Positions 3,001 to 9,000 of a stretch of DNA of 15,788 nucleotides are shown here, piece after piece. Positions within the stretch are counted from its first letter, which is position 1, and each line of letters opens with the position of its first letter. Made by a program: the position numbers. The stretch spans positions 1 through 15,788 of the forward strand of contig JBFMCE010000091.1 in the NCBI GenBank assembly GCA_040754655.1, written 5' to 3'. This DNA comes from Bdellovibrionota bacterium (GTDB lineage: Bacteria > Bdellovibrionota > UBA1018 > UBA923).

Positions 3001-6000
3001 GCCGGAGGTTCAGTAAATGGTTTTGATGGGGGATTATCCGCATCAATCGCCTTTCCTCCGAGTTTGATTTCTACTCCGATCCAACTCGGGTTTACCGCAG
3101 ACAACTTAATGCATTCCTCGAAGGACGAACCCTACGTCGGCCCTCGACAGTTGGGCGCCGGCGTAAAAGTGACCTTGCGCGAGATGCTCATGCTCTACGG
3201 GGACATCGTTGAAAATTATTCGCATTTCACGGGAGCTTATCCCATCTACAGCGCTGGAGCTGAGATCAGCTTAGGCGCAGATTTCTATGCGCGAGGCGGG
3301 TTATTTGGCTTTCGCGAGTCGGGATGGAGTTTTGGTGGCGGTTGGGTTGGCCCTCGCATGGGCGTAAGTTACGGTTATCAGAACAGGCAAGTCAGGGCGG
3401 ATCGCAGTTACCAACACGCCGTAACCATGGATATTTTCATGTAGCTCATCTCCGCCAAAATAATTTTGGTTTGTGAGAGTGTGGGTTTTTTCCAATTGAA
3501 ATGTCTTCATCATCAACGCCATAAATATCGGCGATCAACTTCGTGGTTAAGGTTTCTTCAAAGCTTCCGGCTGAGTAAACGCTTCCCTGGTGAAGCCAAA
3601 TGACGTTTGAGCAGAACTCAGCGGCTAAATTGAGATCATGACTTACCACCAATATGGTCATCCCTTCATTTTTCAGCGCATTGAGAAGCATGAAGACTTT
3701 CTGTTGGTACTTGATGTCTAGGTTGGCGGTGGCCTCGTCAAACAAGAGCACCTTCGGTGTTTGAGCAATGGCCCTGGCGATCAACACTAGCTGCAATTCG
3801 CCGAGAGAGAGCGAGGCCAGGGAAGTGTTTTCAAAACCTGCTATCCCGACCTTATCGATAGCGCTACGAGCGATGGAATAGTCTTCGTGAGTGGGCCTTG
3901 ACCAGTAATCGGTCCAGGGATAGCGCGCCTGCAAGACGAAATTCAAAACCGAGATTGAAAACGTGGTCTTCAAAAAACCAGGGACGAATGCGATGTGACG
4001 GGCAAGCTCCAACCTTGTCCATTGTTGCACTGGTTTCGAGTTCCATGAGATCTCCCCTGAGAGGTCTTTTGACGGTAAAAAGCCGCAGGCGAGTCGAAGC
4101 AAAGTCGACTTGCCAGAGCCATTGGGCCCGGCCAAACACCAATAAGATCCTGTCTCGATTGAAAAACTGATGCCGGAAAGAGCCGAGTTCTTTTGAGAAG
4201 GATACCGATAATCAAGGTTTCTGATCGTCAACTGCACTTGTTGTTACCGCTCCTGCTTCCGAGCAATCATCAAGAAAAATGGGGCCCCCATGAGCGCCAT
4301 CACAACCCCTACGGGAAGCTCGGAAGGACGCGCAACTACTCGGGCTGCGACGTCTGAACACGCGATCAATGCAGCGCCGCCGAGAAAAGAGGCTGGTATC
4401 AAGGTAAAATGCCGGCGCAACCCTAGTCTGCGAAGGGTATGGGGAACGATGAGGCCGACAAATCCGATGACGCCTGCCACTGACACGCAGACCGCCGTCA
4501 TCAGGGCAACCAAGATGAAAACTCTTCTGCGAAAGGCGCCTATATTTAATCCTACGCTTTCGGCTGAGAGCTCATCGACGGAGAGCAGATCCAAAGGCTT
4601 CCAATGAAGCCATCCGATCACCGTCGCGATGCACATGAGTGCAAGTGTTGCCGAGGCTTCGCTCAGTGACAACGGACCAAAAGCTCCCATGAGCCAAGTG
4701 AAAGTGCTGGTCCAAGCGGCCGGATCAGCCAAAGCCATGACAAGCGTCGCTAGAGAAGTGAAAAAGAAACCCACGATGACGCCCGCCAGCAGCACCTCGG
4801 TAGAATGCCTAAAACTCTTTCTAAGCCAAAAGCCCAAGAAAACGAGGGCAGCCAGCGAGAAAATAAAGGCCGAGACTCCGGCTCCTAGAAATTGGTGCGA
4901 CTTGAGAAGTGATCCCAAGACGGCGCCAAGAGCCGCCGCAGAGGCGATTCCAATGGTGTATGGATCCGCCAGCGGATTGCCAAGGCTTGCTTGGATGAGC
5001 GTACCCGCGACCGCCAATCCCCCTCCTACCGCAATCGCACAAATGGTTCGAGGCACGCGCAAGAGCCAGAAGATCTGTTCGTCGAATCCTTCGGTGGCAC
5101 CGACGTTCAGTGAAAGCAATGCGCCTCCGATGAATAAGAGAACGAGCGCGGCGAATATATTAAACTCTAATCTCTTTTCCTTTTCGCGCATCAGATGATC
5201 TTTCCAAGTTCTTCCAATCCCTTTAGTAGCGTAAAGCCCGGTTTCGTCAGCCATTCCCCGGGCACGATGTAGACTTGATTTGAGCGCACGGCGCGCATGT
5301 TCTTGAACTGTAGCCAGAACTTGCGCGACTGCTCCGCCTCATTGCCGGAAGCGGTGAGCTTGCAAATGATGAGTACCTCTGGGTCTTTTGCGATGACTTC
5401 CTCAGGATTGGGCCGCGGGTACTTCGTGGGGGCATCGGAGAATATATTGTCGCCACCTGAGATTCTGACAAGCTCATCGATGAAGGTGCGTTTGCTGATC
5501 GTGATAAGAGGTTCCCAGCCTACTTGAATAAATACTTTCTTCTTTGTCTCGTGATTCGGCGTGCTTTTGTTTTTAGAAAAAGCCTTCCTAAGCGCGGCGA
5601 TTTTGGTCTGATCCTTCTGGCCCAAAGTTTTTGAAATCATCTCCGAGGTGCGGATGATGTCTGAGAGAGATTCTGTGTTGATGGTCAGGATCTTAAGCCC
5701 CAGTTTTTCAAGCTGGCTTACCGTTGAAGGCTCGTTTCCATCGATGCTTGCGAGCACGAGATCCGGGCGTAGTTTATAAATAGTTTCGACTGATAAATTG
5801 TTGTAGGGTCCCAGCAGATTCACTTTTCTTGAGAGATTTTCGGGGATGCTCGTGTATTCCGGCGCCCCAACCAGTCGATCGCCATAACCGAGGTCTATGA
5901 CCAATTCGGCGAGGCTTGGGATCAAGGCTACTATTCTTTCGGGCGCCTTCTCAAAAACCACCTTCTTTCCGCGGTAATCGGTCAAGGTCTGGTGAGCCGA

Positions 6001-9000
6001 GGCATCCTGGGGATGGAACGCGATCAATTGCGCCCCAACTAATAAGCCGACAAAAACCGAAGTTAAAAGTTTATTCCAATTGTCGCGGTGTCTTCCAAAG
6101 ACGATGAAAACCATGATGAAGATCGCCAGTTTGTCGCTTGTGCCGGGTAAGAAGAGGATCGCTCCTGCTAAGAGGCATAACATCGCGAATAAAGATCCTA
6201 GTGCTGAGACTCTAGTCGTTGCTAGCGAGAGAAGATAAACTAAAATGCTTGCGCCTCCCAGCCACGGATTGAATGCTAGCGCCGCTCCCAGCGTCGTAGA
6301 GACCCCCTTGCCTCCTCGAAACGAGAGAAAAGGCGAAAAACAATGGCCTAAAACTGAGGTTAACCCTATCCACAATGCAAGGTCTGGCCCCAGCTGTTCG
6401 TGTCGCGACGACAACTGGAGGTAATAAGCTACTGGCACGGCTCCTTTCAGAAAATCGAAGAGAAAGGTAAGGGCGCCAGGCACGACCCCTGCGGTCCGAA
6501 CGACGTTTGTCGCTCCGATGTTTGAACTGCCGACTTTTCGTAGATCAGAAACTCCCCAAAGCTTCGCGATAATCCAACCGAATGGGATTGCGCCGAGCAA
6601 GAATGAAACAGTGAGGGCTATGTACGCAGGGGTTTCCATGCTTTGCTTCTATAACGATAAAGCGCGATTGCCCCCAAAATAACGATGATCGAGATGAATT
6701 GAGAAGTCGAGAGCACGTTTTCAATGACAAAACCCCTGATTTTATCTCCTCGGAAGATCTCAAGGATCGATCGAATGATGGAATAACCGATGAAATAGAG
6801 GCACAAAAGCTGGCCATCAAACTTCTTCCTCACGCGCAGCCAACGCAAAAAGAAAAATAACGCGAACAGCGACGCAGATTCATACAGTTGCGTGGGATGA
6901 AGGTAGACGCCATGCAAGTGCGGCTCAACTAAGCTGGAATAGAGCTTGATGCCCCAATTCTCACCCGTGGGTTTGCCGTAACAGCAACCTGCTGAGAGGC
7001 ACCCGAGCCTGCCAAATGCATGCGCCAAGGGTACGGATGTCGCGCTGAGGTCCAGCATGGTCCAACGCGGAAGTTTGTGTTTTTTCGTATACCAAAGGAA
7101 AAATGGAATATTAAGGAGCGGCCCACCGAAAAAAACAAGCCCTCCTTCCCAAACATAAAAGATCTCAATAGGGTGGCTTGAATAATAAGACCAGCGAGTC
7201 AAAACATAAAGGATTCGCGAGCCGATCATTCCGATCAAGAGCGACCAGAAGCCAAGGTCGACCATCTTCTCGCCCGGTAGGCCAAGTCTTTCGGTTTCAC
7301 GCTTCGCTACCCACAGTGATAACAAGAAGCCCGTCGCGATCAGCAGCCCATAAGTGTGTATGGGAAAACCCCCAATCTCAATGAGCACCGGAAACATGGG
7401 TTTTCCTCTGGTGGAGTTCCTTCTGGATGATGTCTAGGATAAGAACTCCTACGCCGATGCAGATCGCCATATCCGCTATATTGAAAGCCGGAAAATGAAC
7501 CGAGTATTTCCAATGGAAATCAAGGAAATCGATGACGTAGTTATACGCAGCTCGATCAATCAAGTTTCCCAACGCTCCGCCAATCACCAGTGAAAGGGCG
7601 GATGAGAGCTTTAAATCTTTATCTTCGATTTGCCGGAAAACGTAAAAGATCACCCCTAAGGCGATCAAGGGAGTGATGATAAAAAAAGGCACGCGAAAAG
7701 ACGCATCCCATCGCGCAAGCAGACCGAAAGCCGCTCCCGGATTGCGAACATAGGTTAAATTGAAAAAACCCTCGATGATCGAAAGCGACTCCCCCAACTG
7801 AAACTTTTGCGTGACCAGATGTTTGGTCAGTTGATCAAGGGAGATGATGGTTCCAGTTACGGCGAGCAATACGAGATATTTAAGCTTCATCATGCAATTC
7901 CTTCAACAGCGGTGACGCAGCGCTTGCACAATTGAGGGTGAGCCGGGCTTTGCCCCACTTCGGTCGTGTAGACCCAACATCGCGCGCATTTTTCACCTAA
8001 AGCACGTTCTACTTTAACTTCAAGGCCCTTGCCTTCCGTAAGTTCGATTTTTGAGACGATAAAGAGCCTTGCCAAATCTTCGCGCACATTATTGATGGCA
8101 GCAATCTTTTCTTTTGGAACCGCAACCGATACTTTTGCCTCGAGTGAGTGACCAATGTGTTTTGCGCTTCGAGCATTCTCAAGAGATTTATTGATAGTCT
8201 CACGCAACTCAAGGGCTGCTTCAACTCTATGAAAAGCTTCTTCCCTTCCGCTGACGCTTTGCCAGTTAGGAAAATCAGCTTCAAATACCGATCCGCTTTG
8301 TTTGAGATGTTTCCAAACCTCTTCAGCGGTAAAGCTCAAGATAGGGGCTAGCCCTGTCGCTAGCGCGACGCCGATTTTATGTAGTGCCGCTTGAGAAGAA
8401 CGGCGTTCGCGAGAGTTCTTGGCCGAAGTATAGAGCCTGTCCTTCAAAATATCGAAATACAAAGAGCTGAGATCGACGGCGCAAAAGTTCACGAGCGCAT
8501 GATAAGCAAGGTGGAACTCATAAGACTCATAAGATTGGCGCAACTTCGCCAGGAATTTCTCAGTCCGATACAAGGCCCATCGGTCTAGATCGCAGTAATC
8601 GGCGTCATCGGGGGCCATCGACGGTTCATAATCATAAAGATTGCCCAAGACGTAACGGAAGGTATTCCTGACCTTGCGATAAGATTCTGAAACCCGGTCG
8701 ATGGTTTCAAAAGAGAAATTGAGGTCATTCCTGTAGTCTTCAATCACGACCCAAAGCCGTAGAATTTCGGCTCCGAATTTATTTGTTATCTCAAAGGGGT
8801 CGACGACGTTGCCCTTTGACTTTGACATTTTTCGTCCATCTTTGTCGTTCACAAAGCCATGGGTAAGAACTTTTTTGAATGGCGCTGATCCGCGCGATTC
8901 TACGGCGGTGAGCAATGAAGTCTGAAACCATCCGCGATGTTGATCGCTGCCTTCAAGATAAAGATCGGCAGGCCAGGTGACCTTTCCCTGATTCAAACGG

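Follow-up and report, generated by a model that had tools for sequence, protein, structure and literature searches.

One arrangement comparable to the one described here is that of FbcH from Bradyrhizobium japonicum, in which cytochrome b and cytochrome c1 reportedly originate from one gene whose product is split at an internal signal peptide; that cleavage is said to have been demonstrated, whereas cleavage of the fusion treated below is predicted only. To our knowledge, cleaved internal signal peptides are rare in native bacterial membrane proteins. A second comparison is provided by the OpuA- and GlnPQ-type systems, where binding domains are fused to the membrane domains of their own ABC transporters and the fusion stays uncleaved. 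PlsY, an acyl-phosphate:glycerol-3-phosphate (G3P) acyltransferase, can be compared with the enzyme of Aquifex aeolicus (aaPlsY, 5XJ5), which has seven transmembrane helices, the functional residues S35, N37, T41, R45, H92, G102-G105 with K104, S142, H177 and N180, and a C-terminal H177/N180 motif that binds the G3P substrate (PMC5700162). The same paper reports natural C-terminal fusions of PlsY to DegV-family fatty-acid-binding proteins and, in the portion drawn on here, describes only DegV as a C-terminal partner, a periplasmic partner being a feature of the fusion analyzed in this study.

This fusion, of PlsY with a class III substrate-binding protein (SBP), lies in the window, by which we mean the whole 15,788-nucleotide stretch of Bdellovibrionota DNA that was analyzed. 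Like FbcH, it would consist of a polytopic membrane protein with a cytoplasmic end followed by an in-frame signal peptide and an exported domain, with processing proposed at a signal-peptidase site. The proteins involved are different, however, and while the FbcH products join one complex, PlsY and the SBP are without evident shared function. Like OpuA and GlnPQ, and like a 624-aa SBP-FecCD protein (P0033), it joins an SBP covalently to a membrane protein through a hydrophobic segment, but its partner is no transporter but an unrelated enzyme, and the linker retains a cleavage motif. Both parts are ordinary and the junction is unusual: an exported protein stands behind a predicted seven-helix enzyme with an old signal peptide as the sole link. 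The features of the locus are as follows.

7890..10670, minus strand: ileS, at the head of the same-strand run (TIGR00392, 949.7 bits)
7378..7893, minus strand: lspA, signal peptidase II (PF01252, TIGR00077)
6618..7397, minus strand: lgt, with a 22-nt overlap onto the plsY start (PF01790, 225 bits; TIGR00544, 153.6 bits against a cut-off of 118.9)
5191..6639, minus strand: fused open reading frame of 482 aa, PlsY plus linker plus class III substrate-binding domain (stop-free frame, Pfam)
6064..6639, minus strand: PlsY domain, residues 1-192, with the RHxxNW G3P-binding motif at its C-terminal end (PF02660, 146.9 bits against a cut-off of 24.1)
5995..6063, minus strand: linker, residues 193-215 (23 residues), former SBP signal peptide (alignments, AF2 model, unfused G001)
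Within the linker, minus strand: hydrophobic core, about residues 195-208, and c-region, residues 209-215, ending Ala-Ser-Ala
5995-5997 (A215) / 5992-5994 (H216), minus strand: predicted signal peptidase I site
5191..5994, minus strand: predicted mature BtuF-like binding domain, residues 216-482 plus stop (PF01497, 76 bits)
4244..5254, minus strand: FecCD/BtuC-like permease, longest open reading frame (PF01032, 246 bits)
3446..4237, minus strand: ABC ATPase of the importer (PF00005)

The fused frame and its two halves

Open reading frame and Pfam analyses recovered G3P_acyltransf (PF02660) at residues 11-191 (E 7.5e-43) and Peripla_BP_2 at residues 236-460 (E 3.9e-21) in a single frame of 482 aa. 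PF02660, PF01497 and PF01032 each have one match in the genome, a metagenome-assembled genome (MAG) of 3.78 Mb in 196 contigs that is 90% complete, and all three matches fall at this locus. A search of 5.8 billion proteins yielded 28 more clusters in which the two domains occur together, at 40-58% identity (27 are 451-510 aa long, the other is a fragment of 379 aa), named glycerol-3-phosphate acyltransferase by their sources and derived from 'Deltaproteobacteria' or 'Bacteriovoracia' MAGs; the frame is therefore no assembly artefact. These results uphold what the first-pass annotation had stated on the single frame, on the single copies of PlsY, Peripla_BP_2 and FecCD, and on retention of the fusion in a clade where it is annotated simply as PlsY, the minus-strand location of the gene being the sole correction to that observation. 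Damaged copies also occur, one truncated (P0030) and one frameshifted after the linker (P0031) in the same search, as well as the fusion of genome G007, which is frameshifted within an A-run.

The PlsY half passes the TIGR00023 PlsY model narrowly (138.8 bits, the cut-off being 137.2), and residues 9-194 align over the entire 5xj5 sequence (E 2.4e-28). In this alignment S38, N40, T44, R48, H99, G109, G110, K111, G112, S149, H184 and N187 match the functional residues of aaPlsY, and these positions are invariant or at least 90% conserved among the 28 fused proteins. An AF2 model of the fusion contains the expected run of PlsY helices with pLDDT of about 90. The domain looks catalytically intact, and the earlier description of a complete PlsY half was borne out. 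The acyl-phosphate-making partner PlsX is also encoded in the genome (PF02504, 322 bits, at G000:C141). Retention of all acyl-phosphate- and G3P-binding residues and the presence of PlsX are traits shared with aaPlsY, from which the fusion differs in its C-terminal hydrophobic segment and 267-residue exported domain. By analogy with aaPlsY, the C-terminus of the PlsY domain is expected to be cytoplasmic (PMC5700162). PlsY is a frequent fusion partner, and the protein search also returned PlsY joined to DUF4149 (PF13664), to GpsA and to Nramp; none of these couples PlsY with a signal-peptide-bearing periplasmic protein.

Analysis of the second half points to BtuF, the binding protein of the BtuCD-F cobalamin importer. 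The best PDB sequence matches are the V. cholerae and E. coli BtuF structures (5ysc, 4.6e-26; 1n2z, 8.7e-24), and a Foldseek comparison recovered the same two (TMt 0.80 and 0.83, respectively) with the two-lobe fold of class III SBPs present, although haem binders are nearly equal in fold (TMt 0.81), so that the fold does not separate ligands. E245 and E413, one per lobe, align with Glu residues of E. coli BtuF that presumably dock on the permease; among the 28 fused proteins E245 is invariant and E413 at least 90% conserved. As with BtuCD-F, a FecCD permease and an ATPase share the operon of the binding domain. In contrast to BtuF, the domain has Tyr279 at the position of W66 (the E. coli residue named in PDB titles), has no cobalamin riboswitch within the window, is made as a PlsY fusion, and misses the NF002894 BtuF equivalog cut-off (119.7 bits against 234) while passing the class III/TroA-like model NF038402 (72.1 against 30). 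Because of the missed equivalog cut-off, we file it only as BtuF-like. The permease likewise scores 193 bits against BtuC model NF003001, under the cut-off of 334, and the ATPase remains under every cut-off of the haem, F420-0, FecE and corrinoid ATPase models. The true start of the permease is perhaps downstream of its 64-nt overlap with the fused gene. Genome-wide there are seven B12-binding-domain matches and one cobalamin riboswitch, and neither CbiD nor CobS was found in the genome. The substrate is most likely cobalamin or another corrinoid. Annotation of such genes simply as 'PlsY' conceals the one protein of the genome that is a candidate for the binding component of a B12 importer.

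Origin of the linker and recurrence of the fusion

The fused gene is preceded by ileS, lspA and lgt with overlapping ends. As the first-pass annotation had described, it shares an operon with the only FecCD permease and its ATPase, which follow on the same strand. In other genomes of the order, plsY and the SBP gene lie side by side as separate genes, within a conserved lspA-lgt-plsY-SBP-permease-ATPase cluster. For example, in a genome of the same family (G001) a plsY of 189 aa stops 1 nt ahead of the ATG with which a 274-aa SBP begins, its start being a classical signal peptide, and unfused SBPs generally have ordinary N-terminal signal peptides. The distance from plsY stop to SBP start in 14 unfused pairs is -35 to +14 nt, and all 15 PlsY matches among 41 relatives adjoin the SBP gene or are fused to it. 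A sample of the class contains at least 36 genomes with separate adjacent genes and seven with the fusion, plus G007, fused and frameshifted. Of the loci of 47 genomes, 46 have Lgt upstream and FecCD/ATPase downstream and the remaining one is truncated at a contig edge; the binding domains of different families share only about 30% identity.

The position homologous to the linker in unfused G001 is the N-terminal signal peptide, and the linker originated as the old Sec signal peptide of the binding protein. In the window protein R183, R185 and K190 precede a core of 14 residues, with Ala-Ser-Ala seven residues further on. Between M176 and L205 no ATG, GTG or TTG occurs, which prevents the SBP from being produced with its own signal peptide. 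Since the segment is internal, behind 192 PlsY residues rather than N-terminal, it is not an ordinary signal peptide and at most works like one. The genome contains three Peptidase_S26 genes. The window protein has no Cys at residues 193-230 and hence no lipobox, the feature with Cys at +1 behind the core that marks a lipoprotein-type SBP as a substrate of Lgt and LspA; most fused linkers likewise have none.

Between L192 and D221 no column is at least 90% conserved among the 28 fused proteins, yet all 28 keep a hydrophobic run with a (-3,-1) site behind it. With the Lgt fusions described below included, a small-x-small site lies 3-12 residues past the core in 32 of 34 fused proteins, a loose rule for which composition alone predicts 25.3. 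Ala occupies position -1 in 31 of the 34, against 18.3 expected from shuffles, although the core and site rules are heuristic and the shuffle probabilities are overstated because the fused sequences are kin. Pro or Gly 4-6 residues upstream is also common in the c-region of fused linkers. In these 34 proteins the hydrophobic core is 8-21 residues long, the median being 11; in 37 unfused orthologues, with a site in 36, the median is 13, so the cores of fused proteins are no longer than those of unfused ones.

The fusion has formed repeatedly. The fusion of genome G040 is placed outside the main fused clade in a tree of the substrate-binding domain, and a single fused clade was rejected by the AU test (delta lnL 127, p 1.9e-5). 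Additionally, two proteins (P0104, P0105) carry the SBP fused to Lgt through a linker of the same kind. These data show at least three independent events, two with PlsY and at least one with Lgt. We read them as stop-loss fusion of operon neighbours, the SBP gene fusing to whichever membrane enzyme stands upstream and yielding a polyprotein. Because of the Lgt fusions and the repeated PlsY fusions, an accidental joining of packed neighbours fits better than functional coupling, and the specific PlsY-importer link implied by the first-pass annotation is not sustained.

Fate of the fused product

Our preferred reading, to which we assign a probability of roughly 0.55, is a polyprotein that is cleaved into PlsY with an extra helix and a free, probably cobalamin-binding, periplasmic protein. 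In an ancestral ileS-lspA-lgt-plsY-SBP-permease-ATPase operon with plsY and the BtuF-like gene tightly packed, a small lesion would have deleted the plsY stop and the SBP start, placing both genes in one frame and turning the old Sec signal peptide into the 23-residue linker. The seven-helix PlsY would end in the cytoplasm, and the linker would insert in-to-out right after helix 7 and bring the binding domain to the other side of the membrane, where signal peptidase I would then probably cut past Ala-Ser-Ala (A215). What remains would be an active PlsY, longer by a single C-terminal helix, while the released binding protein would serve the neighbouring BtuCD-type importer, whose substrate is most likely cobalamin or another corrinoid. 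The product would probably be two ordinary proteins, not a new hybrid machine. Simple cleavage would make the biology conventional and the fusion a tolerated accident. The family offers dozens of sequence-diverse cases in which to test when signal peptidase I cuts inside polytopic proteins.

Somewhat less probable is an uncleaved product in which the linker remains as transmembrane helix eight and the binding domain is fixed by PlsY to the outer face of the inner membrane, an anchored receptor feeding the neighbouring importer. Such a tether would agree with the single frame without an internal SBP start, with the existence elsewhere of anchored or permease-fused binding domains such as P0033, and with a hydrophobic run of 14-16 residues (about 18 with two preceding Leu) that is enough to span the membrane; runs of 19-21 residues in P0020, P0021 and P0173 could be stable anchors. 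The AF2 model also shows a continuous helix at residues 185-207, but the confidence of the linker helix (blocks of 74, 56 and 60) is below that of the PlsY helices (about 90-97), no linker column is conserved, and pLDDT drops under 50 for residues 208-214, the sole long low-confidence stretch of the model. An anchor needs neither the excess of Ala at -1 nor the upstream Pro or Gly, the cores have not lengthened after fusion, and the Lgt fusions imply no partner-specific anchor role. Cleavage into two proteins thus seems at least as likely as tethering. The earlier proposal that PlsY acts as a membrane anchor is not supported in that form: conservation of the fusion speaks for it while the identity of the extra helix as a former signal peptide with a (-3,-1) site speaks against it; placement of the binding domain outside is supported, as it must end up there.

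Members of the main fused clade have diverged to 46-59% identity and are still fused, a persistence that also suits a tether. The fused state is at least harmless and might be selected. A tentative proposal, which we hold to be rather doubtful, is that the fusions are natural bacterial polyproteins under selection, with co-translational insertion of PlsY (or, in other lineages, Lgt) delivering the SBP via the internal signal peptide. If so, the repeated and long-lived fusions would confer a real advantage, possibly fixed 1:1 dosage and SRP-type targeting of the SBP, and for an uncleaved product the advantage could be an SBP that a predatory cell cannot lose from its periplasm.

It is very improbable that the fusion reflects functional coupling, in which the ABC system would import a lipid-related or other substrate needed by PlsY, Lgt or LspA, and fusion together with order-wide linkage to lgt and lspA would mark a shared pathway. 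Both fusion partners are lipid-handling membrane enzymes, and lspA-lgt-(plsY)-SBP-permease-ATPase is kept in the 46 loci despite the low identity of their binding domains. Synteny is weak evidence by itself, however; the importer parts are typical class III/type II components nearest to cobalamin and haem systems, there is no sequence hint of a lipid ligand, and in most of the order's genomes the importer is still next to lgt after loss of plsY and plsX. An artefact or dying gene, for which the frameshifts in P0031 and G007 and the fragmented MAG might be invoked, is effectively refuted by 29 intact fused clusters (the query included) from several sources on contigs of up to 1.45 Mb, by invariance of the PlsY functional residues and of many binding-domain residues, and by the presence of PlsX.

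Glycerol-3-phosphate acylation in the lineage

The first-pass annotation had regarded PlsY as an essential enzyme, a claim that does not fit the distribution of the pathway. Any PlsY match is found in only 15 of the 41 related genomes and PlsX in 10, all of which also have a full-length PlsY. Because most relatives have neither PlsX nor PlsY, and because a PlsB-like acyltransferase is encoded directly upstream of gpsA in this genome, PlsY is probably nonessential here. The lineage is visibly replacing PlsX/PlsY and lends itself to the study of how the first step in making phospholipids is exchanged.

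A fused acyltransferase and binding protein in a packed operon

The PlsY fusion is encoded on the minus strand, a correction to the first-pass annotation, as one open frame in which Pfam recognizes G3P_acyltransf at residues 11-191 (E 7.5e-43) and Peripla_BP_2 at residues 236-460 (E 3.9e-21). It lies in the following same-strand run, in which the ends of genes overlap or almost abut:

7890-10670, minus, ileS
7378-7893, minus, lspA
6618-7397, minus, lgt
5191-6639, minus, fused PlsY and substrate-binding protein (SBP), a 482-aa open frame
4244-5254, minus, FecCD/BtuC-like permease
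3446-4237, minus, ABC ATPase

The genome (3.78 Mb in 196 contigs, 90% complete) has 1 match each to PF02660, PF01497 and PF01032, all at this locus. A search of 5.8 billion proteins found both domains together in 28 further clusters that are 40-58% identical (27 of 451-510 aa and one 379-aa fragment), named at source as glycerol-3-phosphate acyltransferase of 'Deltaproteobacteria' or 'Bacteriovoracia' MAGs. The fusion and counts described earlier, namely one 482-aa frame, single-copy domains and 28 clusters, are thus borne out. Elsewhere in the window, ORFs of 335 aa (2437-3444, plus), 303 aa (411-1322, minus) and 221 aa (11625-12290, plus) are without a Pfam match, the first also without an NCBIfam match, and a tRNA lies at 12839-12925 (plus).

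By every sequence test applied, the first half is a member of the PlsY family. Residues 9-194 align to Aquifex aeolicus PlsY (PDB 5XJ5, E 2.4e-28), and the NCBIfam PlsY equivalog is passed narrowly (138.8 bits against a cut-off of 137.2). PMC5700162 gives the acyl-phosphate and glycerol-3-phosphate binding residues of the Aquifex enzyme as S35, N37, T41, R45, H92, G102, G103, K104, G105, S142, H177 and N180. These correspond to S38, N40, T44, R48, H99, G109, G110, K111, G112, S149, H184 and N187 of the fused frame, each of them either invariant or conserved at 90% or more across 28 fused proteins. PlsX, the supplier of acyl-phosphate, is also present in the genome. The AlphaFold2 model of the fused protein has a mean pLDDT of 89.4 and a pTM of 0.55. 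Both the PlsY half and the binding domain appear functional.

The second half is a class III binding protein that resembles BtuF, without being a proven BtuF. Its closest relatives by sequence are BtuF proteins (5ysc, 4.6e-26; E. coli 1n2z, 8.7e-24) followed at a distance by a haem binder (2r7a, 3.2e-13), and BtuF is also closest by fold (TMt 0.80-0.83), with haem binders fitting nearly as well. Our best guess at the substrate is cobalamin or another corrinoid, because BtuF is closest in both respects. Sources call unfused relatives 'cobalamin-binding protein' or 'helical backbone metal receptor'. Seven B12-binding-domain matches and one cobalamin riboswitch occur in the genome, whose only FecCD-type importer is the one at this locus; neither CbiD nor CobS was found in this 90% complete assembly. 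Against cobalamin, equivalog cut-offs are missed (the best model, BtuF, scores 119.7 bits, below its cut-off of 234), the fold permits haem, and the genome is only 90% complete. Riboswitch control of the operon was rejected, as no riboswitch was found in the window. The only cobalamin riboswitch match of the genome (35.6 bits) is on another contig, at L036:1501-1592 (minus; G000:C50:8352-8443), ahead of an ORF that has no Pfam family and runs to 457 aa or more; its product might be a component of B12 uptake not described so far.

The linker and the fate of the fused chain

According to PMC5700162, PlsY spans the membrane with seven helices and binds glycerol-3-phosphate through its final motif (H177/N180). 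We infer, as did the first-pass annotation, that PlsY ends in the cytoplasm and that the binding domain is brought outside by a further hydrophobic segment. An alignment of 28 fused proteins has no column at 90% conservation from L192 to D221, and the linkers nevertheless share one build: basic residues from the end of PlsY come first, then a brief hydrophobic stretch, frequently a Pro or Gly, and finally a small-x-small motif immediately ahead of the mature domain, whose start is conserved. A (-3,-1) candidate cleavage site is found in 28/28.

In a set of 34 proteins (the 28 plus two each of fragments, additional PlsY fusions and Lgt fusions) the site lies 3-12 residues past the hydrophobic core in 32, as compared with 25.3 sites expected under a loose rule when each 16-residue tail is shuffled, and at the edge of the core in the other two. 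Under a rule demanding Ala at -1 the comparison is 31/34 against 18.3, and 31 was reached in 0 of 200,000 simulations, a significance that is overstated as the sequences are kin. The N-terminal signal peptides of 37 unfused orthologues (one further locus, in which the anchor motif is missing, was dropped) have a core of median 13 residues (8-22); 36 of them contain a site, and 34 have Ala at -1. The fused proteins have a core of median 11 (8-21). From its sequence, then, the linker is evidently the old signal peptide of the binding protein, and with a core this short and the site kept, it did not, therefore, become a typical membrane anchor after fusion. What it keeps is a cleavage motif, a feature that would be needed by processing only.

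In the window this motif is Ala213-Ser214-Ala215, with His216 at +1, and residues 208-214 are the only long low-confidence stretch of the AlphaFold2 model. No ATG, GTG or TTG occurs from M176 to L205; the binding protein therefore lacks a separate start that would carry a working signal peptide, which rules out a separate internal start here. Lipoprotein anchoring, suggested by the neighboring lgt and lspA, is ruled out by a linker without a lipobox Cys.

We favor cleavage of the fused chain, as a polyprotein, into PlsY and a free binding protein, with a probability of roughly 0.55. The chain would insert co-translationally, the internal signal peptide and PlsY helix 7 would form a hairpin, and the binding domain would be exported. 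Signal peptidase I, for which the genome has three genes (Peptidase_S26), would cut after A215. The products would be a PlsY extended by an eighth helix and a binding protein free in the periplasm to serve the adjacent importer. Such an arrangement resembles FbcH, the cytochrome b/c1 polyprotein of Bradyrhizobium, whose two products are reportedly separated by an internal signal peptide. A more tentative case can be made for an uncleaved tether, in line with the long life of the fused state and with a few hydrophobic segments that are long. True functional coupling with the lipid or lipoprotein enzymes, for which conserved synteny is the sole basis, is very improbable. An assembly artefact or pseudogene is effectively excluded by 29 intact fused clusters and conserved catalytic residues.

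Origin and recurrence of the fusion

The query is found as a single fused frame in 7 of 41 related genomes: six from one family (G000, the window's own, with G003, G004, G005, G008 and G009) and G040 from a different family. G007 is also fused, with a frameshift in an A-run within the binding domain (L013:2062-2864, minus; G007:C125) that reflects either recent pseudogenization or a sequencing error in this MAG of 71% completeness. G001, which belongs to the window's family, has the two genes apart: plsY (189 aa) stops just past the RHxxNW motif, and one nucleotide on starts a 274-aa SBP that opens with a textbook signal peptide. In a class-level search of 127 genomes, plsY and the SBP gene are distinct neighbors on one strand in at least 36, of which 35 are among the class-level matches listed and one (G026) came from the search of the 41 relatives. 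Across 14 unfused pairs, plsY stop and inferred SBP start (a heuristic choice) lie -35 to +14 nt apart, and a small indel would therefore suffice to fuse them.

In a tblastn survey, lgt is directly upstream and the permease and ATPase downstream in the loci of 46/47 genomes, the remaining locus being broken off by a contig end, while in only some is the SBP gene separated from lgt by plsY. This order, lspA-lgt-(plsY)-SBP-FecCD permease-ATPase, is kept order-wide (window 3446-7893, L004-L035, L044-L059) with binding domains only ~30% identical between families. It ties a B12-type importer to genes for lipoprotein maturation.

A maximum-likelihood tree of 68 binding domains (quick search; without the fragment P0027, the frameshifted L013, L015 as a duplicate of L035, and later-fetched loci) places 31 fused proteins in one clade (SH-aLRT 90) with P0030, a truncated fusion in which the PlsY tail is still present. 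The G040 fusion falls among unfused sequences of another family. Constraining all 35 fused rows to one clade cost 127 log-likelihood units (p-AU 1.9e-5), and a single origin for all PlsY fusions is rejected by this test, for a group defined after the tree was seen. Additionally, the SBP gene of G080 is fused in frame to lgt (L046:1571-3193, minus; P0104, 541 aa, PF01790 at 3-237 and PF01497 at 286-514). The database holds a second Lgt fusion (P0105, 583 aa, 45% identical to P0104) and a further PlsY fusion (P0209), and all three have a signal-peptide-like linker as in the PlsY fusions. The SBP thus fuses to whichever polytopic enzyme gene is upstream, which argues for tolerated accidents of packed operon neighbors rather than a PlsY-specific partnership.

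Other architectures were also seen. In P0033 (624 aa, PF01497+PF01032) a related SBP is fused ahead of its FecCD permease, with an ordinary signal peptide at the start. Hits P0039-P0098 include PlsY with DUF4149 (PF13664; ~400 aa, many clusters in public data), with GpsA (~584 aa, one cluster of 117 members) and with Nramp (P0047, 563 aa). Natural fusions of DegV-family fatty-acid-binding proteins to the PlsY C-terminus are described in PMC5700162. A literature search, with most subscription journals outside its coverage, turned up no publication describing an SBP fused to PlsY or to Lgt. The two parts belong to known families.

PlsY and a PlsB-like enzyme in the order

The first-pass annotation had taken this PlsY to be the only one and an essential enzyme. 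It is the only one, with one PF02660 match, but the case for essentiality is weakened by a PlsY match in just 15 of 41 related genomes and a PlsB-like enzyme in the window's own. The 15 matches (13 above cut-off) are each at this cluster, and 26 relatives have none. The following weak or partial matches, and L047 of G121, are flanked by lgt and the SBP gene, come from genomes that lack PlsX, and look, by sequence, like decaying plsY remnants:

G030:C5:47725-48171, 68 bits
G019:C6:41157-41585, 29.6 bits
G022:C70:4353-4778, 23 bits
G014:C4:41184-41597, 20.4 bits

PlsX is present in 10/41 relatives, all with full-length PlsY. A PlsB-like acyltransferase of ~560-600 aa, matching in the catalytic core only and far below the PlsB cut-off, occurs in 34/41, including the window's genome. 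The copy there is a 553-aa protein directly upstream of gpsA and a candidate alternative glycerol-3-phosphate acyltransferase:

L060:1506-3167 (G000:C127), plus, PF01553 acyltransferase
L060:3189-4214 (G000:C127), plus, gpsA

The order thus seems to be replacing PlsX/PlsY with a PlsB-like enzyme, with both routes present in the window's genome.
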